A stretch of 64,000 nucleotides of DNA from Gemmatimonadota bacterium. GTDB lineage: Bacteria; Gemmatimonadota; Gemmatimonadetes; Palauibacterales; Palauibacteraceae. The stretch lies in NCBI GenBank assembly GCA_965116475.1, contig OZ220691.1:1088001-1152000 (forward strand), read 5' to 3'. Position 1 is the first letter of the stretch, and the number at the start of each line of letters is the position of its first letter. Below the pieces are notes generated by a model. It searched no databases, was not told where the DNA came from, and worked only from the letters and a program-made list of their open reading frames with translations. The translations under genes and the position numbers were made by a program. Below, in pieces: positions 11,355-23,742 of this stretch.

Positions 11355-11639
11355 ATGATTCGGGAGACGACCTACACCGGGGCCCGCAAGAACCTCGCCA
11401 CGTTGATGGACCAGGTCACCGACACGCACGAACCGGTCCTGATTCGGCGCCGCGGCAAGGCGCCGGTCGCCCTGATCGCCGCAGAAGACCTCAGTTCATG
11501 GATGGAGACGGTATACGTGCTCCGCTCACCGAAGAACGCCCAGAGACTGCGGGAAGCGATCGCCTGGGTCGAAAGCGGGCAGGGAGAGCCTGTGGACCTC
11601 GACGAGCTCGCCCAACGGCTTGGCCTTGAAGGCGCCTGA
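11355..11639 (+). CDS. yefM: Phd/YefM family antitoxin
   Basis: TYTGARKNLATLMDQV...EPVLIRRRGK...SWMETVYVLRSPKNAQRL. ATG at 11355. Confidence 0.9.
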   Translation: MIRETTYTGARKNLATLMDQVTDTHEPVLIRRRGKAPVALIAAEDLSSWMETVYVLRSPKNAQRLREAIAWVESGQGEPVDLDELAQRLGLEGA

Positions 11640-11907
11640 CGGAAAGAGCACGCGGGACGCCGTCCTCGCGCCTCAGTGTCTGCGGGATCTGGAGTATTGG
11701 ACCCGGACGAAACCCAAGCGAGCTCGACGGGTGTTCAAGCTCGTTCGGTCGACGCTGCGAGATCCGTTCGACGGCCTCGGAAAGCCGGAACCGCTACGCG
11801 GAGAGTTCGCCGGTTCGTGGTCCCGCCGAATCGACGGCGAGCATCGCTTGATCTATCGGGTCACGGCCACGCGAGTCTACTTCCTGTCCGCCCGAGATCA
11901 CTACTGA
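11620..11907 (+). CDS. yoeB: Txe/YoeB family toxin
   Basis: DPFDGLGKPEPLRG...WSRRIDGEHRLIY...ARDHY. Overlaps the antitoxin end. Confidence 0.92.
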   Translation: MALKAPDGKSTRDAVLAPQCLRDLEYWTRTKPKRARRVFKLVRSTLRDPFDGLGKPEPLRGEFAGSWSRRIDGEHRLIYRVTATRVYFLSARDHY

Positions 11908-11958: not shown

Positions 11959-12855
11959 ATGAGGGAGATCAGCTTTTTTGGATCGTTACGGCGGCAGGTC
12001 ACCGGAGTCCTCGCGGTCTGTCTGGGTTCGCCGGGCGCCGCTGTCGCCCAGAACGTCTTCGCCTCCACCCAGTCCGCGACCCTGCCGACCGCGGCCTCCT
12101 CGCGCGCGGGCGACCTGCACATCGAAATCTCCCACCGGTTCGGCTACGTGTCGGGCGGTGCGAGCGACCTTTGGGGCCTCGACGGATTCGTGCTGAATCG
12201 CCTCGGGCTGGCGTTCACGCCCCAGGACCACGTCACCATCGGCGTGCTTCGTTCCAACAGCCTGGACAACCTCGAGTTCAACGCCCGTTTCGCCGGGCTG
12301 CGGCTCGACGGCGCCACCGGTCCGGTCGAGTTCGCTGCGCAGACCGGAATGGCGTGGAACCTGCAAGTCGAGCCGGACGACAGCCACGCCGGTCACGAGC
12401 ATGCGCTCGCACCCCGCGCCAGCGTGTATGGCGGCGGCCGTTACGACGGCATGGCCGCGGACAACGAGATGCAGGCCTACGTTCAGGTGATCGCCAACGC
12501 CAGGGTCGCGGATCGCGTCGCACTCGGTGTCGTGCCCACGCTTCTCTGGAATCCGCGAATCGAAGATCCCGACCGGGAGACCGCGGTCTCAGTCGGTGCG
12601 ACCGGCCAGATCTACCTCAGCCGCATGTGGAGCGTCTTCGGCGAGTGGATCTTCAGCGGCGCGAGGGAGGATCAGGAGTACGACTCCGCCTCTTTCGGCG
12701 TCGAAATCCGCACGCCTGGACACTTCTTCAAGATCGTCGTCACGAATCAGCACCGGATGAATCCGACGCATACGCTCGCCGGCGCCGCCGAGGACTTCCT
12801 TGACACGAACTCGTGGCGCCTCGGCTTCAACATCCAGCGAAGACTCCGGCTGTAG
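11959..12855 (+). CDS. Outer-membrane beta-barrel protein (DUF5777-like)
   Basis: Signal peptide, EISHRFG, GVEIRTPGHFFKIVVTN and a C-terminal RLGFNIQR strand. Confidence 0.7.
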   Translation: MREISFFGSLRRQVTGVLAVCLGSPGAAVAQNVFASTQSATLPTAASSRAGDLHIEISHRFGYVSGGASDLWGLDGFVLNRLGLAFTPQDHVTIGVLRSNSLDNLEFNARFAGLRLDGATGPVEFAAQTGMAWNLQVEPDDSHAGHEHALAPRASVYGGGRYDGMAADNEMQAYVQVIANARVADRVALGVVPTLLWNPRIEDPDRETAVSVGATGQIYLSRMWSVFGEWIFSGAREDQEYDSASFGVEIRTPGHFFKIVVTNQHRMNPTHTLAGAAEDFLDTNSWRLGFNIQRRLRL

Positions 12856-13769: not shown

Positions 13770-13913
13770 TTACCGGACCACGGGCTGGAGCTTGCCGCAC
13801 TCGTACTCCGGCGGTGCCTCGGCACCGAGGAGGTGGCGACGAAGTAGTCCCAGCGGCGGCGCATCATGTAGGGCTCGTTGCCGAAGCCTTGGCCCCGGTT
13901 GCGGAGCAGCAGC
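13770..13913 (-). repeat. Degenerate second copy of the 3' end (about 47 codons) of the S9 peptidase gene at 20852-20995
   Basis: Shares GACGAAGTAGTCCCAGCGGCGGCGCATCATGTAGGGCTCGTTGCCGAA exactly with the intact gene. Encodes ...EYECGKLQPVVR* versus ...QYEFGKLQPLVP*, and has a 1-nt deletion. Confidence 0.9.
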
Positions 13914-14099
13914 GGGCCCGAACGAGCAGCGGAAGGGGCACTCTGGTCACGGGCCTATCGTTTCGGTCCACCGCTTGAATCCGTGGCCACACCACGACTA
14001 GTTTCTGACGAACCGGCACCATCGGAGCCGCGCGCGTCAACCGACGCTTGATCGGTGGGCTCTAGCGATCCAAGAGGGAGAACTCAAGGAGGTAGCGCG

Positions 14100-14828
14100 G
14101 TGCGGAATTCGAACGGTGCCATTCCGGCGATCAGCTTGTTCACCGGTGCGGGGGGCTTGGACCTTGGGTTCGCGAGGGCAGGTTTCGACATACGTGTCGC
14201 GGTCGAAACCGACCCGGCCGCGGTGGCTACACTTCGCCGCAACTGGCGAAGTACACCCGTAATCACGCGCGGGCTCGAAGAGGTATCAACCGGTACGCTA
14301 CTCGACAAGGCCGATCTGAGCGTCGGGGAGGTGGGTATGGTCTTCGGCGGTCCTCCTTGCCAGTCCTTTTGCATCGCCGGAAACGGCCGCGGGCTTGAAG
14401 ACCCGCGCGGGCAGCTGTTGCTTGAGTTTTGTCGCGTTGTCCGTGAAGCACGGCCCAGCGTGTTCCTGATCGAAAACGTGCCGGGACTGCTCCGCGTACC
14501 CCATATCGCTAGTGCAATCCATGACGCCGTGAACCGCAGCTCAGGATCGGACTACCACGTCTCACACGACATTCTCAACGCCGCGGAGTACGGCGTACCG
14601 CAGCACCGGAAGCGGGTCTTCTTTGTCGGCTGGAGGGAATCCGGCGACTTCTATTTTCCGAAGCCGACGCACTACGTGGAAGGCCGACGTCGCCACAGCG
14701 GACTCAAGCCCGCTGTCACTGTCGCGCAAGCTTTATGGGGGCTACCCGAGCCGGATCCGCCATCTGCAATAGCCTATCGTGTTGCAAAGACAATTCCCGA
14801 TCGGAATCGGCAATGGTACGGAAAGTAA
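14100..14828 (+). CDS. C5-cytosine DNA methyltransferase, alpha subunit (motifs I-VIII) of a split M.AquI-like enzyme
   Basis: AAGGAGG RBS before the GTG at 14100. Motif I SLFTGAGG, motif IV GGPPCQSF, motif VI ENVPGL and motif VIII PQHRKRVF. Motifs IX and X are absent. Confidence 0.9.
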   Translation: MRNSNGAIPAISLFTGAGGLDLGFARAGFDIRVAVETDPAAVATLRRNWRSTPVITRGLEEVSTGTLLDKADLSVGEVGMVFGGPPCQSFCIAGNGRGLEDPRGQLLLEFCRVVREARPSVFLIENVPGLLRVPHIASAIHDAVNRSSGSDYHVSHDILNAAEYGVPQHRKRVFFVGWRESGDFYFPKPTHYVEGRRRHSGLKPAVTVAQALWGLPEPDPPSAIAYRVAKTIPDRNRQWYGK

Positions 14829-15886
14829 CGAACCACCAAGCCACTGCCCACGCGGACACTACTCTCGAAAAGATCCGCCTCGTTCGTGAGGGCAAGCGGC
14901 TATCCGGTCGACACAGCGCCTTCGGAGCCGCCTACCGACTCCTAGACCCCGAAAAGCCTTCACCTACGGTAACACGTAGTGGTTTTCGAGATTTCATCCA
15001 TCCTACTGAAGATCGACTCTGTACTGTTCGAGAGCTCGCGCGGCTCCAGACCTTCCCGGACAACTATGTGCTCGAAGGGCGTAGGTGCGACACCTACGCC
15101 GGCAGTCGCTATAGGCAACAAACCCAACACGAACAACTTGGCAATGCCGTACCCCCTCGACTCGCGTATGCACTCGCCGGAGCGATTAGGCGGCAGCTCT
15201 TCGACAGACGGGATCCTCCATCTCTCGTTCGCCCGATTTCCCCAACTGTGTTTCGCCAACTTGACTCCACATATCCGGACACGGATCTAGGGAACAAACT
15301 CAACCCTCTTGATGAACTCATCTATATCATCCTTTCAAGGCGAACCAAGGAGAATCAGTACCAAGAGGCGTATCGGAATTTGCGTCGTATATATCGCGGC
15401 TGGAGTCGTGTGCTCGAAGCTGATTTGGAGGAGGTCGAACAACTCTTGCAACCAGTCGGTCTCGCTCGCCAGAAGGCACGAGCGATCAAAGCGCTGCTTA
15501 CTACTGTCCAAGCTGATATGGGTCGCGTGTCTTTAGCATCTCTAAAATCTGCTTCTGATTCCGCCGCTTATCATTACCTCCGGTCGCTACCCGGCGTGAG
15601 CGACAACACGGCCAAGTGTGTTATGCTGTACTCACTCGGCCGTGATGTTCTCCCCGTCGACACACACACATATCGCGTGTCACGACGTCTTGGCCTGATC
15701 CCACAATCCGTATCGTACTACCGGTCGCCGCGCTTACTAGCGAAAGCAGTACCACGCCCCTTGCGGCGACGATATCACATCGTGTCAATCCTACACGGCC
15801 GGAAGGTCTGCAGAGCTCACTCGCCACGCTGTGACGTCTGCCCGGTGACGAACAGTTGTCCGCACTCCACCCACCCCAAGCTCTAG
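14813..15886 (+). CDS. C5-MTase beta subunit (TRD + motifs IX-X) fused to an HhH-GPD/endonuclease III-like glycosylase with a 4Fe-4S motif
   Basis: ATG at 14813 overlaps the alpha gene end. Motif IX RLCTVRELARLQTFPD and motif X EQLGNAVPP. Then PLDELIYIILSRRT, HhH LPGVSDNTA, VDTH and CRAHSPRCDVCPVTNSC. Confidence 0.88.
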   Translation: MVRKVTNHQATAHADTTLEKIRLVREGKRLSGRHSAFGAAYRLLDPEKPSPTVTRSGFRDFIHPTEDRLCTVRELARLQTFPDNYVLEGRRCDTYAGSRYRQQTQHEQLGNAVPPRLAYALAGAIRRQLFDRRDPPSLVRPISPTVFRQLDSTYPDTDLGNKLNPLDELIYIILSRRTKENQYQEAYRNLRRIYRGWSRVLEADLEEVEQLLQPVGLARQKARAIKALLTTVQADMGRVSLASLKSASDSAAYHYLRSLPGVSDNTAKCVMLYSLGRDVLPVDTHTYRVSRRLGLIPQSVSYYRSPRLLAKAVPRPLRRRYHIVSILHGRKVCRAHSPRCDVCPVTNSCPHSTHPKL

Positions 15887-18144
15887 TTATACGCCGGCGT
15901 TAGCGCCTCATGGGCAAGCTCAATGCACTCGGCCAGGCATTGGTATCGGAAGTCGTCATAGTCTACTGGGTCGACGGAATTGTCAGGACCCCAGCCAAGG
16001 TTCGGAAGTTCGTCCTGCAGCCGCCGGGCGACGAATGCCTCGCAGATTATCTCTGCGATTATAGCCCTAGCCTGTGGATCCTTTTGGCCCGGCCACTTTT
16101 CGCCTGTGCTCGGATCAAGATCCGGGCCGAGCACTCGTGCAAGAGTCGCATGTCTTGCCGCAATCTGCACCAAATATGAATCTGTCGCGTCCCACCTGAA
16201 TCGACGACCCGGCGCGCCGAAGTGAGACACATCTTCAAACTTGAAGTTGATCCTAGGCTTGCCGCCGATCTCGCGAAACACGATGATCGCGTCGTCCTTG
16301 TGGTGCTCCAGCTGAGCCTTCAGCACGGCCTTTGCCTCGGTATCTGAGACCGCTCGCACTGACGCCGTAGCAACTCCAAGACGACCATCGAACTCTAGCG
16401 TGACGTGCGACCGATTCAATGAGACATCGCCGTGGCGAGGGGTTACATGAACCGTCGCCCCATCCAGCGAAGGATCGGCGTAGATCGTAATGTGCTTGTT
16501 TCGTCCGGGGATTGATGTATAGCGACGTTGTGAAAACTGAAGATCTTGATCCAAGTCGATGACGCCCTCGATTTGGTCGCGTACTGCCACTTTGAGGATG
16601 TGAACGGCGCTCTCGGCACAAATCTCGATCGTCGCGAGATCCGTCAACTGATCGCCGCTGACCTCGACGGAACCACGAAACACGCCAGGGTGCTCGTCCA
16701 TCAGTTGAAGTTCGATTGTGTCGTGAGACACAAACAGATTACCCGCCGTCGCAGCGATCTCACACTCGACGACACGGTCTCCATCGGCCTCTTTCCGATA
16801 GTAGATTCCCAACCGCTTCGCTTTACCGATCTCAAGACGGAGAGTAGCTGGGATTACGGTTAGGCCCATCTGGAGCTCCGGCCCGGACCCTGGTCCTTCG
16901 GGTGTGTCGAGCTTTTCCGCCAACTGCTCGCCCAACCTATCTAGCGCCTGCCGGAGCTCAGAACCAACGCGTTGCTCGGTCGGCGGAGTTAGTTCCTTTT
17001 GAAGCTCGGATAACGCCTTCTCGATCACAGGACGGACTGCATCGTGAACCGCATGCACAAAAGGATGTTCGCCATTCAGCCCTAAGCGATCAGGATCGGT
17101 CACCTGTGTCGGATTGAAAGCATCGCGTTGTATGCTTGGGTCCGCCTCTCGAGCCCGCTCGAATTCGTCATACTGCAGCAGAAGTTCGGGGACGTGAGGG
17201 AGATACAACTCCCCGAACAGATGTTGGCCCGCTAGTGTGTCCGATCCTCGCGCACCCAGGAAGCCGATATCGTGCCCCGTCCTGCCGTCGACGATGAGGA
17301 CCCCGCCCTCGCTTTTCCACAGGCGGGTGATCGAACGTCCGCCTAACCGCAATGTCTCTTCAGATCTCTGGAGCAATAGCCGAGCGCGTTGCCCGTCCGA
17401 ATACGTAACGAACTCCGGCAGCTCCATATCTTCCTCCACCAGCACCGCGCCTACCGGCATGAACCCCTCTATAAAACGATCTCGACCGACCCTCCCCCCT
17501 CTCATCTCCCTCATCTGTAGCGGGATGAGCGGCAAACCCTGCGGGTGATATCGTATCTCAACGTGTCGCTCCAGGTCCCCGGCAAGCGTATCGAAACGTG
17601 GCTTCGTGATGTCGGCGAACGGCCTAAGCGTTACGACGGTCCCGTTCCCCGCGTGCAGCTCCAGACGCGCTCGCACGTCATCATCCGCCGCCGCCGAAAT
17701 CACTACTTTCGATCGTCGTCCCTCAACCACCTTGCATGCGGAGTAACGATCGCCATGAATGCTCTCGAACAACACTTCCCCTAGCACGCCGACATCCTTG
17801 GCACCTCTCGCGTTGAGTCCTCGCACCGTCGCACTGTCGAAGCTACTCGCAGGATCGCCATACTGTAGGAGACGATCCTCCATAACCTCACGGCTCATCC
17901 CCTCGAATCGATCTCGAATGACAAGGCACTCCTGGCCTCGCGTCGTGTCGTAGTCAAGAACAATCGGCCGTGCGACCAATTCTCTCTCTTGTAGCTCACC
18001 CTTCTCAACCAGGCGGTACGCAGAATCTCGCGCATTGGTTATTAGCTCGACGAGTCCCCGGACAACGAATCCGCTCATAGCACGTGACGCGTTGCGTCTC
18101 AAATAACGTGCCGCGACTGGCAGGTCGATCATTTCGTCAGGCAT
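15883..18144 (-). CDS. GHKL (MORC/Hsp90-like) ATPase with a long beta-rich C-terminal region
   Basis: N-box LVELITNARDS, G1-like IRDRFEGMS, G2-like RGLNARGAKD and GNGTVVTL. 753 aa. The stop overlaps the convergent gene at CTAG. Confidence 0.78.
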   Translation of the reverse strand: MPDEMIDLPVAARYLRRNASRAMSGFVVRGLVELITNARDSAYRLVEKGELQERELVARPIVLDYDTTRGQECLVIRDRFEGMSREVMEDRLLQYGDPASSFDSATVRGLNARGAKDVGVLGEVLFESIHGDRYSACKVVEGRRSKVVISAAADDDVRARLELHAGNGTVVTLRPFADITKPRFDTLAGDLERHVEIRYHPQGLPLIPLQMREMRGGRVGRDRFIEGFMPVGAVLVEEDMELPEFVTYSDGQRARLLLQRSEETLRLGGRSITRLWKSEGGVLIVDGRTGHDIGFLGARGSDTLAGQHLFGELYLPHVPELLLQYDEFERAREADPSIQRDAFNPTQVTDPDRLGLNGEHPFVHAVHDAVRPVIEKALSELQKELTPPTEQRVGSELRQALDRLGEQLAEKLDTPEGPGSGPELQMGLTVIPATLRLEIGKAKRLGIYYRKEADGDRVVECEIAATAGNLFVSHDTIELQLMDEHPGVFRGSVEVSGDQLTDLATIEICAESAVHILKVAVRDQIEGVIDLDQDLQFSQRRYTSIPGRNKHITIYADPSLDGATVHVTPRHGDVSLNRSHVTLEFDGRLGVATASVRAVSDTEAKAVLKAQLEHHKDDAIIVFREIGGKPRINFKFEDVSHFGAPGRRFRWDATDSYLVQIAARHATLARVLGPDLDPSTGEKWPGQKDPQARAIIAEIICEAFVARRLQDELPNLGWGPDNSVDPVDYDDFRYQCLAECIELAHEALTPAYN

Positions 18145-18166
18145 GACGTAATCTCACGCGATAAGG

Positions 18167-18775
18167 TTAGAGGTCGAACTGCTTTCTACCTTCCTGAATG
18201 AAGCGTGTGAGCCTACGGCTCTCTTCTCGATCGGGCAACCCCTCGATTGTACGTTCGACACGGGCCAATCTCCCAGAGGCCACAAAAGGGGAGGCGTCGG
18301 GAAAGAGCTTAAGAGCAGCGAGAAACGCATCCCGACCAATCGCCTGCATCCTTCTTCCGGCTTGAAACTGTCCGAAGGCGTCGGAATCGACGATCGGCTG
18401 AATCAACCGTGAGTAATCCACCGGTCGCTTCGTCGCGGTTACGTTGTGTCGCTCGTGGACAGCTTTGAGTCCTCGGGCTCGTTCTATCCCCGGGCGCGTG
18501 AGAGCGAATCGTTTGATCCGACCCATTCGATCACCCGCTGTCTTCCGCATGTCCTGATCTGTCACTAACTTCCCTGCCCGCGACTTCTTCGCTTCAGAAA
18601 GGTGAACCCTAACAGCATCTTTGTCTGGAAAATCCGGGTAGCGGCGCCAACAGAAAAGGGCGGGAAACATCTCGTGAGCCTTTACCGCGATCGCCTCCAG
18701 GTCGCTCTCCCCGCCGAGTTCGTAGAGCGCCAGAACAACCAGTAACGTCTTGTTTACTTCTGCGTTGTCATTCAC
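18167..18775 (-). CDS. Putative winged-helix DNA-binding protein (Mrr-N/HARE-HTH-like)
   Basis: LLVVLALYELGGESDLEAIAVKA...VRVHLSEAKK...FALTRPG follows a wHTH pattern. Gaps of 15-22 nt to its neighbours. Confidence 0.6.
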   Translation of the reverse strand: MNDNAEVNKTLLVVLALYELGGESDLEAIAVKAHEMFPALFCWRRYPDFPDKDAVRVHLSEAKKSRAGKLVTDQDMRKTAGDRMGRIKRFALTRPGIERARGLKAVHERHNVTATKRPVDYSRLIQPIVDSDAFGQFQAGRRMQAIGRDAFLAALKLFPDASPFVASGRLARVERTIEGLPDREESRRLTRFIQEGRKQFDL

Positions 18776-18790
18776 TATCTGAATCCTAGA

Positions 18791-20689
18791 TTAGACGAGA
18801 TCAAATTCAACCAGCGTTTGCTCCGGGTAGAATGTTGCGACCAGATAGTCGCCTTCCCGAACCCCAGCATTCCTCAGCTGGCGATACGTTCCCCAGAAGC
18901 TATTGCCCCGTATCGTCACAGGCACGACTTCGCCCGTGGGAAGGCTACAGCGCCACTCTTCTCTCTGCGTCGAGAGGGCTGACGGAAAGGCGAAAACACC
19001 GCTAAGGTTGAAGCGGCTCACGCGGTACGTTACGATGAAGCGCCCCGGACCTTCCCAGCCGGAAGTGATGATGTTCGTGGACCGTGAGCCAAGCCATTCG
19101 TTTCGGCGTTCCGAGAGCAGCTGGTTCGGGACGCGGCGTCCCCGCAAGGCGTAGACGGCAGTCGCAACTCTGGTAAGAATGGGGCTTCGGGTCAACACCG
19201 AGGCCATCGGCTCGGAGAAGCCGCGCCTCTTCATCCCGTCGACCATATCTTGGAGGAGAATGACCCCTTGGTGCTCTTCTATCAGTTCTACCAAGGCGTG
19301 CTCGGACTCCGACAGGATCTCGGCCTGCAGTGGCTTGCCTCGGAGTCGCGCTCGACCCGCGGTAACTTCGAACCCGGAATGCTGTCTTAGGACGAACTCG
19401 ACCACGTCCCGTGGCGGCACCGGATCCAATCTGGGGTTGCGGAGAAGACCCGAGTGAAGTTGGACAATTGGCAAGGGAGCCGTAACGGCTAACACCTTCC
19501 GTGCTTGCCGGACCAGCGATGAATCCGGAGAGGGTTTGGGGACCAGATACCCGAGAACGCGATCAAGACTTGAGCCGCGCGGCGCAATAAGTGTGGCGGC
19601 GTGTCCCGCAGAGAAAGGCGAGAGTTCTTCGAGGGCTGATTCCTTCACTGCACCAACACGTCGAAGTTCAGCGCGTGCCTTACCCTTCAGCCTCTTTAGT
19701 GCCTCGCTGAGCTGTCCTGTCTCGACCCAAGCTGAGCGACCCTCCACACCAATCCATACGCGGGTTTCTGGATCCCAACTGATCTTCGGAATCAAGCCGA
19801 CCTTAGACAACACGCTCAGGGGACTGACAGAAAGGTCGTCTCGTAGGACTTCCCCAACCGACAACCGTTCGACCAAGACTGTGGCGGAAGCAATTCCCCC
19901 TGCGAGATCGATCTCTCGAACCACTCGAGAACCGATCGGTAACCGTAGACCCGATTCGGCCAACTTTTTCAGATGTCGGGTTACGATCTGTCGGACCCTT
20001 TCGCGCGTGATTCCAGTTCTCTCGCCAAGTTCCTCGAATGTAAACTGCTCAGCGGAACGGTAGCGAAGACGCGCAAGTACCAGATCTCGATTGCGGGCCC
20101 CTAAGTTCGCACATAGAGCCTGAACCTCTTCGTCCAAGGTCCTGGCTGATGCAATCGACAGGAGAAGCTCGGCGCTCAAGGCCGGAACGCATATGTCGTC
20201 CTGTTTGGTTTCCCAGCTCATTTCAACGAGCTTTTCCATCGGAATCGTACCCAGAACGTCCACTAACTCACGGAGCTTTGCAAGCCGGGTCGGGCTGAGA
20301 ACACCGGACAGGTCACAGTCAGACAGATCTCCGAGAGTATGGCAACCCTGTTGATAAAGCGCCTCCAGCGCACCTTTGTCGAGGGCGAGACTTGAGGTCG
20401 GAACACGGGCTAGGTACGAGGGCACGTCAGAGACGGTCGGCTTGTAGTCCGTGACGACCTCTTGGGTTGCCGTGATTGCCCCGAGACGCCGGAGAAAATC
20501 GACAATCTCAGTCACGGTTCCGGGGCCTATCTGATCAATCCGCAAGAGGTCTGCAGTCGATAGGCCATCCAGTGCCCCCACGGTCCTCAATCGATTGCGA
20601 AGCAGGAGGTTCCTTGTGCGACTCGAAAGATCCGTTCCGGCAATCGACATATGCTGAATGGCAACAGGTACCTGTACAACCTCGCGCAC
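18791..20689 (-). CDS. Protein with RNA polymerase alpha-CTD repeats and a sigma-70 region 4 HTH
   Basis: DLSSRTRNLLLRNRLRTVGAL...LLRIDQIGPGTVTEI (alpha-CTD), a second degenerate copy, and FTFEELGERTGITRERVRQI (sigma region 4). Confidence 0.8.
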   Translation of the reverse strand: MREVVQVPVAIQHMSIAGTDLSSRTRNLLLRNRLRTVGALDGLSTADLLRIDQIGPGTVTEIVDFLRRLGAITATQEVVTDYKPTVSDVPSYLARVPTSSLALDKGALEALYQQGCHTLGDLSDCDLSGVLSPTRLAKLRELVDVLGTIPMEKLVEMSWETKQDDICVPALSAELLLSIASARTLDEEVQALCANLGARNRDLVLARLRYRSAEQFTFEELGERTGITRERVRQIVTRHLKKLAESGLRLPIGSRVVREIDLAGGIASATVLVERLSVGEVLRDDLSVSPLSVLSKVGLIPKISWDPETRVWIGVEGRSAWVETGQLSEALKRLKGKARAELRRVGAVKESALEELSPFSAGHAATLIAPRGSSLDRVLGYLVPKPSPDSSLVRQARKVLAVTAPLPIVQLHSGLLRNPRLDPVPPRDVVEFVLRQHSGFEVTAGRARLRGKPLQAEILSESEHALVELIEEHQGVILLQDMVDGMKRRGFSEPMASVLTRSPILTRVATAVYALRGRRVPNQLLSERRNEWLGSRSTNIITSGWEGPGRFIVTYRVSRFNLSGVFAFPSALSTQREEWRCSLPTGEVVPVTIRGNSFWGTYRQLRNAGVREGDYLVATFYPEQTLVEFDLV

Positions 20690-20851
20690 GATCTAGCTCC
20701 CTTCCTGGCGTCCCCGAAACTCGACACGGCGATTAGTCATGGCGAAGCACCTCGGGACAACGCTGGAGAGATCCCACTTGACCGTAGCGCCCTAAAACCG
20801 CGTAGTTGATCCAAAACAGTTACCGCTCGGGATTCGTTGAGCACGGGGCGG

Positions 20852-23200
20852 TTACGGCACCAGGGGCTGCAGCTTGCCGAACTCGTACTGCGGGGGCGGT
20901 TCGGCGCCGAGGAGGTGGCGGACGAAGTAGTCCCAGCGGCGGCGCATCATGTAGGGCTCGTTGCCGAAACCGTGGCCGCGGTTCGGGAAGAGGAGGAGGT
21001 CGAAGTCCTTGTTCGCGGCGATGAGGGCGTCAACGACCAGCATCGTGTTCGAGTGCGGGACGTTCGTGTCCATCGTGCCGTGGGCGATGAGGAGCTTGCC
21101 CACCAGGTTCTCCGCCACGAGCTGGTTTGCCTGGTTGTCGTAGTTCGTGGCGCCGTCGGCGTACTCCTCCAGCAGCCCCTGGTACTTCTCGCCCCAGTCG
21201 TCCTCGTAGTTGCGGTTGTCGTGGTTTCCGGCCTGCGAGACGGCAACCTTGTAGAAATCCGGGTAGCGCAGGATCCCCGAAGTGGAGGCGAAGCCGCCGC
21301 CGGAGTGGCCGTAGATCCCGACCCGGTCGATATCGATCCAGGGGTGGCGCTCGGCGAGTTGGCGGATGCCGGCGATCTGATCCGGGAGCCCGTTGTCTCC
21401 CATGTTTCCGTAGTAGGCGTCCTGGAACGTCTTCGAGCGCCTCGGCGTCCCCATCGCGTCGAGTTCGATGACGACGAACCCGAGTTCGGCCAGCGACTGC
21501 AGATCCCGGTGCGCCGCGCGGAAGTTCCGGCTCCCCACGCTCCCGCTCTGCGGCCCCGGGTAGAGGTAGTTGATCACGGGATACGTGGCGGCCGGGTCGA
21601 AGTTCGAGGGACGGAACATGAGCCCGTGCAGATCCGTCTCGCCGTCGCGCGCCTTCACCGTGAACGGGATCGGCGGCTGCCAGCCGGTCCGCTCCAGGCG
21701 TGAGATGTCGGCCCGTTCGACGGTCTGCAGCAGGTCGCCGTCCATGTCCCGGACGACGGTGACCGGCGGGATCGTGGGCGTGGAGTACTGGTCGACGAAC
21801 GTCTCGCCATCCGGCGCGAGCCAGACGACGTGGTTCGCGCTGTCGGGCGTGAGGAGTTGGACGTCGCCCCCGTCGAGGCCGGCGCGGTACAGGTACATGA
21901 AGTAGGGGTCGCCGGGCTCCCGCCCGTTCCCCATGAAGAGGATCTCCCGAGCCTCCGCGTCGACCGCCACCACGTCCTCCACCTGCCACGCGCCCGAGGT
22001 CACCTGCCGCTTCGGTTCTCCGGTGTCCGCGTCGTAGAGGTAGAGGTGCCCCCAGTCGTCGCGCTGGGAGTACCAGAGGATCTCGTCGGACTCGGAGAGG
22101 TAGCGCCAGTTGGCGTGGGACTCGAAGAAGGTCTCCACGACCTCCTCGAACAGGTCGCGGACCTCGCCCGTGCGCGCATCGGCCATGCGGACGAGCGCCC
22201 GCTTGTGGTCGCGCGAACTCGACACGAAGACGAAGCGGGAGCCGTCGGCGCTCCACTCGACGTCGGAGAACGTCCCGCCGCAGGCCACGTGGTCGCAGAC
22301 CGTGGAGCGGTGCTGGTCCGGGGGCATGTCCAGGCGGACGACGCGGCTCGCCGCCGGCGCCTCCGTGTCGATCACCACGCGGTGGATGCGGAAGATGACC
22401 GAGTCCTCCGGGAGCGGGTAGCGCCACGCCTCGAGTTCGGGGTGCCCGACCTCGGTCGTGACCATGTACATCATCCCCACGCCGCGGGCGTCGTGCTGGA
22501 AGGTGGCGATGCGCCGCGAGTCGGGAGACCACTTGAGCACGGGACGGTCGCTCTTCACCCAGCCCGCGTTGTTCGTCGCGTAGCCGAAGTCCGCGACGCC
22601 GTCCTCGGTGAGTTGGGTCTCCTCCCCCGTGGCCAGATCCCGGAGCCACAGGTTGTGGTCGCGGATGAAGGCCGCCCTGGTCCCGTCCGGTGACACGATG
22701 TCGAAGCGGCGGGCCGTCGTGCCCTCGGGCGCCGGGACCGCCTCGCAGCGGTCGGCGTCGAGCCCGCAGGCGTACGTCTCTCCCTCGACGTCGACTTCGA
22801 AGCGGATCCTCCCGCCCTCGAGCGCGAGATCCCCGAACGGGAGCGCGAAGGCAGTGTGCTCCTCGCCGGTTGCCGCGGTGAGCGCGGCGGCGATGCGGGC
22901 GTGGTCGAAGGCGCGCTCCCGCGTCCCCGCGGCCGGATCGATGAGGACGTACTCGTTGCCCCCCTCGAACCGGGTCCGATACCAGAACCGCCCGTCCTCC
23001 AGCCAGACCGGGATGACGGAAGCCCCGAGCACGAGCGGATTCACCTGGCTCGCGAGCCTCCCCTCCGCCCGCGCGTAGTCCGCCACCGTCAGCGCGTCGG
23101 GCGCCTCCTGGGCGAACGCACCCGGCGTCGGTGAGAGGTTGGCGGCGATCAGCAGCGTTGCGCTGGCTATCCGGCTCATGCTTGCGATCCTGTTGGACAT
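20852..23200 (-). CDS. S9 family dipeptidyl-peptidase IV-like peptidase
   Basis: Signal peptide, DPPIV_N propeller, GHSGGG nucleophile, DTNV and RGHG. Start placed at MSNRIAS. Confidence 0.92.
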   Translation of the reverse strand: MSNRIASMSRIASATLLIAANLSPTPGAFAQEAPDALTVADYARAEGRLASQVNPLVLGASVIPVWLEDGRFWYRTRFEGGNEYVLIDPAAGTRERAFDHARIAAALTAATGEEHTAFALPFGDLALEGGRIRFEVDVEGETYACGLDADRCEAVPAPEGTTARRFDIVSPDGTRAAFIRDHNLWLRDLATGEETQLTEDGVADFGYATNNAGWVKSDRPVLKWSPDSRRIATFQHDARGVGMMYMVTTEVGHPELEAWRYPLPEDSVIFRIHRVVIDTEAPAASRVVRLDMPPDQHRSTVCDHVACGGTFSDVEWSADGSRFVFVSSSRDHKRALVRMADARTGEVRDLFEEVVETFFESHANWRYLSESDEILWYSQRDDWGHLYLYDADTGEPKRQVTSGAWQVEDVVAVDAEAREILFMGNGREPGDPYFMYLYRAGLDGGDVQLLTPDSANHVVWLAPDGETFVDQYSTPTIPPVTVVRDMDGDLLQTVERADISRLERTGWQPPIPFTVKARDGETDLHGLMFRPSNFDPAATYPVINYLYPGPQSGSVGSRNFRAAHRDLQSLAELGFVVIELDAMGTPRRSKTFQDAYYGNMGDNGLPDQIAGIRQLAERHPWIDIDRVGIYGHSGGGFASTSGILRYPDFYKVAVSQAGNHDNRNYEDDWGEKYQGLLEEYADGATNYDNQANQLVAENLVGKLLIAHGTMDTNVPHSNTMLVVDALIAANKDFDLLLFPNRGHGFGNEPYMMRRRWDYFVRHLLGAEPPPQYEFGKLQPLVP

Positions 23201-23382
23201 CCTGGGTCCTCTGCGGCATGCGAAGTCGCAAGATGCCGACCGTCCCCCGCGCCGGCCACCGCGGTCTCGCGAGGTGTCCGGTGGCGCGCCGGGCGGGTAT
23301 TTTGGAGAGGATGACTTCCGGCCGGAACGGCGTCCGGCGGGCCGTGCGTTGAGCGGGGCGAAGGAAGGCGGAAGGAGGGCAC

Positions 23383-23742
23383 GTGTTGCAACCTCGGCTG
23401 GACGCTCGGAGAACGCGCTCCCTGCTCGACCTCGCGGCAACCAAGGTGCAGGTCGTACAGAGCCGGGCGAGCGCGAAGGACTACCTGGATGTGAACGCTC
23501 TGATTCACCTCGGGGGGATCGACCTTGGTCAGGCCCTGGGCGCGGCCACAGCGGTCCACGGCGATCGCTTCAATCCGATCCTGACGCTGAAGGCGCTGAC
23601 CTTCTTTGACGATGGCGATCTGTCGGAGGTCCCGATCATGGTCCGCGACCGACTCGCGGCAGCCGTCCGGGGCGTCAACCTGGAAGGCCTGCCGAATTTC
23701 CCCGCTCGCCAAGGTCTTCTGGCGTCCCGAGGGTCGTCATGA
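23383..23742 (+). pseudogene. Internally deleted AbiEii-like nucleotidyltransferase toxin
   Basis: MLQPRLD is joined almost directly to the C-terminal SLLDLAATK...RASAKDYLD...LKALTFFDDGDL. The GGTA..RxSxDxD catalytic segment is absent. Confidence 0.6.

Follow-up and report, generated by a model that had tools for sequence, protein, structure and literature searches.

A split C5-cytosine methylase with an endonuclease III-type glycosylase domain on its target-recognition subunit in a Gemmatimonadota genome

The methylase and its two subunits

The region analysed is a stretch of 64,000 nucleotides (nt) from the genome of a Gemmatimonadota bacterium (the window), in which two overlapping genes on the forward strand encode the halves of a C5-cytosine methylase, the second half being extended by an endonuclease III (EndoIII)-type glycosylase domain. 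The alpha subunit (14100..14828, +; 242 amino acids, aa) contains motifs I-VIII, with GPPCQ and ENV visible among them, and the proximal part of the variable region, and it terminates in the tail RVAxTIPxRNxxWYGK. Its open reading frame has its upstream limit at 14055 and matched positions 3-166 of the 324 in PF00145 (expect value (E) 2.2e-46, 159 bits) and 2-180 of TIGR00675. The 242-aa product given by the gene caller (P0144) implies initiation at GTG 14100, which is the likely start as judged from the sequence; a Shine-Dalgarno-like AAGGAGG was read 7 nt before this codon (14086..14092, +).

The beta subunit (357 aa) is encoded from ATG 14813 to 15886 (+), and the two genes overlap by 16 nt (14813-14828). 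The beta ATG (14813-14815) and a GGAA resembling an internal ribosome-binding site (14803-14806) both lie within the last codons of alpha (14803..14815, +). Residues 1-145 (14813..15247, +) comprise the distal variable, or target-recognition, region, motifs IX-X and a short linker, and were recognized by PF00145 (positions 238-323, E 2.4e-10, 40.8 bits) and by the PADLOC profile PDLC03378. The remainder (15248..15886, +) consists of an EndoIII-type HhH-GPD [4Fe-4S] domain (residues ~146-352; PF00730, E 5.5e-10) and a C-terminal tail. The PF00145 cut-off of 22 bits was exceeded by alpha and by beta. On PDLC03378, a single-chain methylase profile of 344 positions, alpha covered 5-204 and beta 205-330; because these stretches are contiguous there is no gap between the halves, which together make up one complete enzyme. 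Both profiles placed motifs I-VIII and the proximal variable region on one chain and the distal variable region and motifs IX-X on the other. These coordinates and PF00145 matches agree with the first-pass annotation, which had described two reading frames, a 16-nt overlap and an ATG of the second frame's own. In the databases the fusion of methylase and glycosylase is labelled merely 'endonuclease III' or 'cytosine methyltransferase'.

The division recurred in homologues. A search of 5.8 billion proteins with beta returned 49 close relatives (E 1.6e-72 or better), 44 of which were 320-427 aa long and 42-82% identical to the query; most were flagged with both PF00145 and PF00730. When 22 relatives were aligned with the beta of the window, 22 of the 23 rows started no more than four residues from the same position, with the sequence M/V-(V/A)-R-K-x-x-N-H, and the one outlier (P0042) carried a long extension and was probably mis-called. 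With alpha as the query, 105 of the best 120 matches were shorter than 300 aa, and all 30 aligned homologues stopped within two residues of a single column, in RVAxTIPxRNxxWYGK or a variant of it. Seventeen pairs of alpha and beta-glycosylase are probably co-located, identical size of the longest contig being used as a proxy for one contig. A scan of genomes for the beta family recovered members only from a Longimicrobiales genome bin (L001) and, truncated, from L002; a metagenome scan with the beta alignment had few close relatives among the matches listed. In L001 the beta subunit was 61% identical to that of the window, its GTG start lay 19 nt before the alpha stop codon, and alpha ended in ...KWYGKK. 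Two further loci (L083 and L084) encoded a 244-aa alpha and a 134-aa beta that overlapped by 11 nt and lacked the glycosylase. The junctions of the window, L001, L083 and L084 all (4/4) kept the RTG start and, 8-10 nt upstream of it, a GGA, which is the pattern required for independent initiation of beta.

This conservation was weighed against the alternative that the break is a frameshift due to sequencing error or to decay of a former single-chain gene. A single base change within 14735-14828 would merge the two frames, and single-chain relatives exist. However, the break point, the alpha tail, the beta start codon and the upstream GGA are kept in homologues down to 42% identity, the split form that lacks the glycosylase belongs to a classical cassette that includes an XcyI-type enzyme, and the sequence was identical in two runs, Logan contigs from two studies covering 14000-16000 with 0 differences and 0 gaps (one run may be the genome's own source). 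An artefact or pseudogene is extremely improbable, and on the evidence of the homologous sequences the alpha/beta split is natural, as the first-pass annotation had argued. In one raw-read run (X4), of which about 1 in 100 reads was sampled, 0 reads fell on the stretch. A programmed -1 frameshift joining alpha to beta was considered and rejected: no X XXY YYZ heptamer occurs in 14735-14828, where the beta frame is open, and the sole such heptamer within alpha is at 14150.

A model of alpha in complex with beta(1-140) scored 0.89, and the best of three controls scored 0.02; 58 of 80 solved complexes attained the former mark, as did 2 of 110 mismatched pairs. The runs agreed in at least 91% of contacts, and the predicted local distance difference test (pLDDT) of the partner was at least 80. 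Since the two parts of a known fold can succeed through resemblance to solved single-chain methylases, the model was counted as likeness only; it is compatible with assembly of the two chains and may reflect the known fold. With these relatives, natural two-subunit C5 methylases, hitherto very few, amount to a family of hundreds, a matter of practical interest for split-methylase targeting tools.

The glycosylase domain and its family

A complete HhH-GPD domain with VDTH and Cx6Cx2Cx5C had been proposed for the C-terminal part of beta. Indeed, the HhH motif, the catalytic Asp (D283 in PVDTH, 15659-15661) and the Fe-S loop C333-x6-C340-x2-C343-x5-C349 (15809-15859) were all found. The lyase Lys of endonuclease III (Nth) is absent from the window copy, in which N265 (15605-15607) stood opposite the Lys of LPGVGVKTA when aligned by HMMER to Deinococcus radiodurans EndoIII-1.

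The HhH hairpin was tabulated for all 120 listed matches and for ten proteins read from loci. Among the 50 members of the beta-glycosylase family with the domain, Lys occupied the lyase position in 47, the others being the window (Asn), P0002 (Thr; 82% identical to the window) and P0024 (Tyr). The Asp and the four Cys were kept in all 50. Judged by these residues, the family looks active and is probably bifunctional, the glycosylase itself is probably active, and the Asn of the window copy is, from the sequences compared, a derived loss in its sub-lineage. The Asn noted in the first-pass annotation was thus present, but the monofunctional character drawn from it is not a family trait and would apply at most to this sub-lineage.

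The same residues bear on the possibility that the domain is non-catalytic and binds DNA or a modified base, helping the methylase or defence proteins to find or discriminate DNA. In END nucleases an inactivated EndoIII/Ogg-like domain serves to sense hypermodified bases, according to the accessible portion of PMC12191111; methylase-glycosylase fusions of the L006/L089 type have lost the Asp, and the window copy has lost the Lys. Retention of Asp (50/50), Lys (47/50) and all four Cys in the window's own family argues for selection on catalysis, and a role as a reader of this kind is quite improbable.

The best solved relative of the domain was D. radiodurans EndoIII-1 (E 5.9e-27) and the best curated one NF053634 (DR2438-type, 113.2 bits). 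Other structure matches were to ROS1 (E 8e-12) and human NTHL1 (E 3.9e-9). The former raises the prospect of 5-methylcytosine excision like that of plant DME/ROS1, by which off-target or hemimethylated marks would be erased or foreign DNA containing 5-methylcytosine attacked. Bifunctional DME/ROS1 enzymes have Lys and Asp at the catalytic positions, both of which the family keeps, and the match to ROS1 was better than those to NTHL1 or Mig.MthI (E 8.5e-8). Bacterial EndoIII proteins, however, matched far better than ROS1, and to write and erase the same mark within one complex would be futile. Excision of 5-methylcytosine is therefore considered very improbable.

Two positions alone differed consistently between the beta-glycosylases and their standalone relatives. 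At beta residue 176 (15338-15340), Arg was found in all 50 beta-glycosylases and in six of eight separate full-length fusions, and Gln in 49 of 62 standalone relatives. This residue presumably lies near the DNA-inserting residue, and the Arg may be a convergent change beside it, which we treat as a lead and not as evidence.

Unions of methylase and glycosylase and their predicted role

A FastTree tree was built from 128 domains (2 of 130 sequences were dropped, having no domain), with the root placed between these and the distant groups of L005 and L006 type; the L006/L087 fusions and the L005-type neighbours made up the outgroup. The 50 beta-glycosylase domains formed one clade (support 0.993) nested in standalone EndoIII-like proteins of 207-286 aa, which were 40-47% identical to the fused domains. 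Single-chain fusions of 580-610 aa fell into two other clades. In public data, single-chain Dcm-HhH-GPD fusions ranged from 580 to 726 aa (P0051-54, P0061, P0076, P0087, P0107; L006, L087, L090), those of 629-726 aa being L006, L087, L089 and L090. Adjacent genes were found as well. In L005, L128 and L140 the methylase was followed by a separate glycosylase in which Tyr takes the place of the Lys, and in L169, a locus in the window's own class, by one that kept Lys; in L081 an unsplit methylase was accompanied by a separate, overlapping glycosylase gene, with an Eco57I-type enzyme in the cassette. Within the sequences sampled, unions of C5 methylases with HhH-GPD glycosylases, whether by fusion or as neighbouring genes, appear to have arisen several separate times.

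The first-pass annotation had known of no described fusion of this kind. No paper describing a methylase-glycosylase fusion was found in the literature searched, where most subscription journals lay outside coverage, but such unions are common in public data, both as single chains and as adjacent pairs. What is new is the two-subunit M.AquI-type layout joined to a glycosylase, the origin of that glycosylase from the EndoIII-1 type and not the Mig type, and the five-gene cassette described below.

Two observations concern related loci. On the Thermus thermophilus plasmid pTthSNM7-6d (L180, 3879-5685), a cytosine methylase annotated with 405 aa precedes an unannotated HhH-GPD-like stretch, after which comes an IS1634 transposase; a cultured organism may here possess a fusion that has been disrupted or wrongly annotated. 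At L083:2170-4321 and L084:7268-9084, the split methylase without glycosylase is followed by an XcyI-family endonuclease gene (PF09571). We take the site of these XcyI-linked split enzymes to be CCCGGG/CYCGRG-like, and the site of M.AquI is CYCGRG; kinship with the former hints that the window methylase may read a CCCGGG/CYCGRG-like site.

The distribution of Vsr was surveyed by tblastn with the Vsr of L006 against 16 loci and the window, with flanks of unequal length. Vsr adjoined L006, L087 and L090 and was detected at two positive-control loci of the window's own genome; it was not found at the window, L001, L005, L081, L128, L140 or L169. In the fusions of L006, L087 and L090 the Lys is replaced by Ser or Gly, and that of L006 is also without the Asp. 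The Vsr-free loci keep the Asp together with Lys, Tyr or Asn. L089 starts inside the gene and was therefore left out of the comparison. The window's genome, a single 3.62-Mb contig, encodes four C5 methylases. Two of the three other Dcm genes have an adjoining Vsr gene (G000:C1:2914211-2915492 and C1:1835204-1836868) and one, of 364 aa, has none (C1:127201-128211); there is no Vsr gene within the window.

The repeated unions with C5 methylases in particular point to a problem caused by 5-methylcytosine, for which deamination to thymine is the obvious candidate. Together with the complementarity to Vsr and the presence of Vsr beside two of the genome's other Dcm genes, they favour a Vsr- or Mig-like T:G repair module tethered to the target-recognition subunit of the split methylase, a reading to which we give an even chance of being correct. 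The first-pass annotation had left the choice between such a repair unit and a site-guided effector; the comparative evidence favours the former, the latter, taken up below, being less likely.

Under the proposed mechanism, alpha would contribute the S-adenosylmethionine-binding and catalytic motifs I-VIII, and beta, translated from its own start within the last codons of alpha, would contribute the distal target recognition and motifs IX-X. Homology and the complex model suggest that the two assemble into one methylase. The glycosylase would then remove T (or U) from the T:G (or U:G) mispairs left by deamination of 5-methylcytosine (or cytosine) at the enzyme's own sites, its tether to the target-recognition subunit holding it at the sites of methylation. 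This role would parallel that of Vsr for the genome's other Dcm genes and that of Mig.MthI, a glycosylase of the Methanothermobacter plasmid pFV1 that is reportedly linked genetically to M.MthTI and active on T:G. The window copy, with Asn for Lys, would be monofunctional and leave the abasic site to an apurinic/apyrimidinic endonuclease of the host; most relatives, which keep the Lys, may also nick.

Several observations weigh against T:G repair. The match to Mig.MthI (1kea) was much weaker than that to EndoIII-1 (E 8.5e-8 versus 5.9e-27), and both the nearest solved and the nearest curated relatives belong to the EndoIII enzymes that act on oxidised pyrimidines. Every curated family cut-off was missed (TIGR01083, 88.3 versus 211.7 bits; NF007978, 60.8 versus 405; NF053634, 113.2 versus 400). 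The known T:G glycosylases of the HhH-GPD superfamily, Mig and MBD4, carry Tyr at the lyase position, unlike the Lys kept by the family; the window has Asn, its closest kin is not Mig, and Tyr was seen only in P0024 and in the L005, L128 and L140 neighbours. The complementarity to Vsr was drawn from few loci with unequal flanks, and the Asp is retained in L087 and L090. For most homologous contigs the order of the genes was deduced from equal contig sizes alone. Finally, no nuclease fold was found in the modelled 753-aa and 632-aa companion proteins of the cassette, so that the glycosylase could be its only DNA-damaging activity.

The kinship with EndoIII enzymes would also fit a general base-excision enzyme that repairs oxidised pyrimidines, the fusion securing only co-inheritance or expression with no link to methylation. 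The nesting of the fused domains in standalone EndoIII-like proteins at 40-47% identity, and the mere two positions that consistently separate fused from standalone forms, speak for this possibility, as does a standalone glycosylase paralogue in the same genome (C1:2991885-2992352). That paralogue also speaks against it, the host already having a standalone copy, and repeated separate unions with C5 methylases and complementarity to Vsr would not be expected of a hitch-hiking housekeeping enzyme. General repair is accordingly regarded as distinctly unlikely. If T:G repair is the true role, the fusion would represent a second answer to the mutagenic cost of 5-methylcytosine, alongside Vsr and unrelated to it in fold, and the physical tether of a repair enzyme to a site-reading subunit would offer a natural model of a glycosylase that borrows its sequence specificity.

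The five-gene cassette, its island and known systems

The alpha and beta-glycosylase genes converge with three genes on the reverse strand, which encode a GHKL ATPase of 753 aa (15883..18144, -), a 202-aa protein (18167..18775, -) and a DNA-binding protein of 632 aa (18791..20689, -). All five recurred in L001, in unchanged order. The stop codons of the beta and GHKL genes overlap in the palindrome CTAG (15883-15886), and in L001 these genes overlap by 23 nt; the overlapping ends leave no room for a terminator between them.

The 753-aa protein had no match in Pfam, NCBIfam, PADLOC or PHROGs. Its AlphaFold model (pLDDT 81.6) consisted of a Bergerat-type ATPase with transducer in the N-terminal ~400 residues, followed by immunoglobulin-like beta-sandwiches and C-terminal helices, and Foldseek matched it to the ParE/GyrB 43K fragment, Hsp90, MORC2 and SMCHD1 (E 3e-10 to 1e-7). 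E33, N37, D40 and the G109-G122 motif were conserved. Of 23 homologues, a distant one (P0143) carries PF02518/PF13589 (HATPase_c), and the look-alikes in the Atlas were HATPase_c_3 clusters of ~750 aa. By the proxy of equal contig size, 14 of 22 GHKL homologues are probably co-located with a homologue of alpha or of the beta-glycosylase. Paralogues of 26-27% identity occurred in 18 other genomes of the phylum without the methylase and are thus uninformative on the glycosylase; a scan of viral contigs with the GHKL alignment gave one distant match.

The 202-aa protein, conserved beside the GHKL gene, was 47% identical in L001 and 54% in L217; it had no match in Pfam, NCBIfam, PADLOC or PHROGs, only chance-level matches among PDB sequences and only unnamed clusters in the Atlas. 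By profile matches and its model (pLDDT 89.1), the 632-aa protein comprised an HhH like that of the RNA-polymerase alpha C-terminal domain, a sigma-70 region 4 helix-turn-helix, tandem winged helices and a C-terminal B3-like barrel, which resembled the B3 domains of VAL1, VRN1 and TEM1 and the N-domain of LlaJI.R1. Its family counted 1290 representatives at E 0.001 or better. No defence-system model matched the 753- and 202-aa proteins, and the three-gene operon (15883-20689, -) may be an undescribed defence module. In L217 (G121:C10:1636000-1646338), from a genome of the window's class, the genes for the 632-aa, 202-aa and GHKL proteins are arranged as in the window, next to a contig end that cuts off the sequence beyond; frameshifts or assembly errors divide the GHKL gene into three pieces.

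From its sequence features, the cassette is contained in a horizontally acquired island of 7 kb (about 13913-20851). G+C content dropped from 0.65-0.72 to 0.56-0.61 between about 14000 and 21000. Two direct repeats of ~143 nt, 84-89% identical and 7082-7083 nt apart, bound the region. The right repeat (20852..20995) is the genuine 3' end of an intact gene for an S9 peptidase (20852..23440, -; 862 aa, DPPIV_N and Peptidase_S9), and the left one (13770..13912) is a duplicated 3' fragment of that S9/DPP-IV gene, so that the island seems to have been inserted at the 3' end of the gene and to have restored it. No integrase gene lies between the repeats and no tRNA in the window. In a search of 401 genomes of the phylum, the full-length fusion was found in the window's genome only, other matches being to the glycosylase domain alone; 15 of 18 congeners matched through a standalone glycosylase only. 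The low G+C content, the repeats and the single occurrence among 401 genomes point to recent horizontal gain. An excised circle, considered for Logan contigs of 7072 and 7095 nt, was rejected since their ends fall inside the 48-nt exact part of the repeat, as a break in the assembly graph gives. To the left of the island lie a Phd/YefM antitoxin (E 6e-21) and YoeB toxin (E 7.5e-28) pair (11355-11907), followed by a gene for a DUF5777 membrane beta-barrel (11959-12855).

Within the cassette, the methylase would be the self-marking part and the convergent operon the presumed part directed against foreign DNA. In the effector reading introduced above, the EndoIII-type domain, guided by the target recognition of beta and perhaps also by the B3 binder and the GHKL ATPase, would excise a base at unmethylated foreign sites, Lys-bearing relatives would also nick, and methylation by alpha and beta would shield the host. 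Such restriction has precedents in another fold, R.CcoLI and R.PabI, in the accessible part of PMC7806768. Its main support is that neither the GHKL nor the 632-aa protein showed a nuclease fold or family; in addition, the Lys and Asp of a bifunctional glycosylase/lyase are kept in the family, and the methylase genes and their companions are convergent, an orientation common among restriction-modification cassettes. Against this, C5 methylases are united with this kind of glycosylase in the company of other partners too, such as the Eco57I-type enzyme of L081, and Vsr is present where the glycosylase has lost its Lys. In the window copy itself the lyase Lys is gone, only half of the recognition region resides on beta, and a nuclease could be concealed in the 202-aa protein. 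Restriction by the glycosylase is considered unlikely. Rather unlikely, too, is a nuclease-free, restriction-modification-like defence in which the target-recognition subunit carries the glycosylase as a weapon against unmethylated sites and a MORC-like GHKL clamp and the B3 binder assist; if true, it would be a bacterial assembly of the parts of plant silencing (5-methylcytosine writer, Fe-S HhH-GPD glycosylase, MORC and B3). The cassette brings a 5-methylcytosine writer together with a glycosylase of a DME-like class, an ATPase resembling MORC and a DNA binder with a B3-like barrel, and bears on the proposed bacterial origin of the parts of eukaryotic chromatin silencing.

Returning to the favoured T:G repair, Mig.MthI is its functional model, being likewise an HhH-GPD [4Fe-4S] glycosylase linked to a C5 methylase; in contrast to the window it is a separate, unfused gene, has Tyr where the window's family has Lys or Asn, and was matched far more weakly than EndoIII enzymes. 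Vsr shares with the window glycosylase the genomic niche beside a C5 methylase but is unrelated in fold and chemistry, acting by an endonuclease nick and not by base excision. D. radiodurans EndoIII-1 (DR2438; PDB 4unf, 8a5c) has the same layout of HhH, Asp and four Cys but is a standalone repair enzyme with Lys where the window has Asn. The single-chain fusions also join a C5 methylase C-terminally to an Fe-S HhH-GPD domain, but they are single polypeptides of 580-726 aa in other clades of the tree, some of which have lost catalytic residues and adjoin Vsr. The split methylases of L083 and L084 share the break point, the overlapping start and the tail with the window (beta 56-57% and alpha 41-42% identical); their beta subunits lack the glycosylase, and their partner is a recognisable type II enzyme (PF09571).

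Two systems described in part of the literature resemble the cassette in other respects. The MORC/paraMORC neighbourhoods that Iyer, Abhiman and Aravind described in 2008 (PMC2292703, accessible portion), in which cytosine methylases and Vsr occur, share with the window a GHKL+S5-type ATPase, a cytosine methylase, a T:G-repair-type enzyme and a restriction-modification-like cassette, but the window has an HhH-GPD domain where Vsr usually stands; the words 'glycosylase' and 'HhH' do not occur in that paper. END nucleases, in which the available part of PMC12191111 describes an inactive EndoIII domain fused to a PLD nuclease, likewise have an EndoIII-family domain recruited into a defence-island protein. 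Their domain is dead, fused to a nuclease and without a methylase, whereas the window's family keeps the Asp, Lys and four Cys and a methylase subunit.

The closest known layout is that of M.AquI, with which the first-pass annotation had compared the position of the split. In the accessible portion of PMC3404938, the large subunit of M.AquI carries motifs I-VIII together with a portion of the variable region, and the small subunit the distal variable region and motifs IX-X; the division at the window, set beside M.AquI by description, agrees with this account. The window differs from M.AquI in that its small subunit is extended by an Fe-S glycosylase of ~210 residues and its companions are not a classical type II endonuclease.

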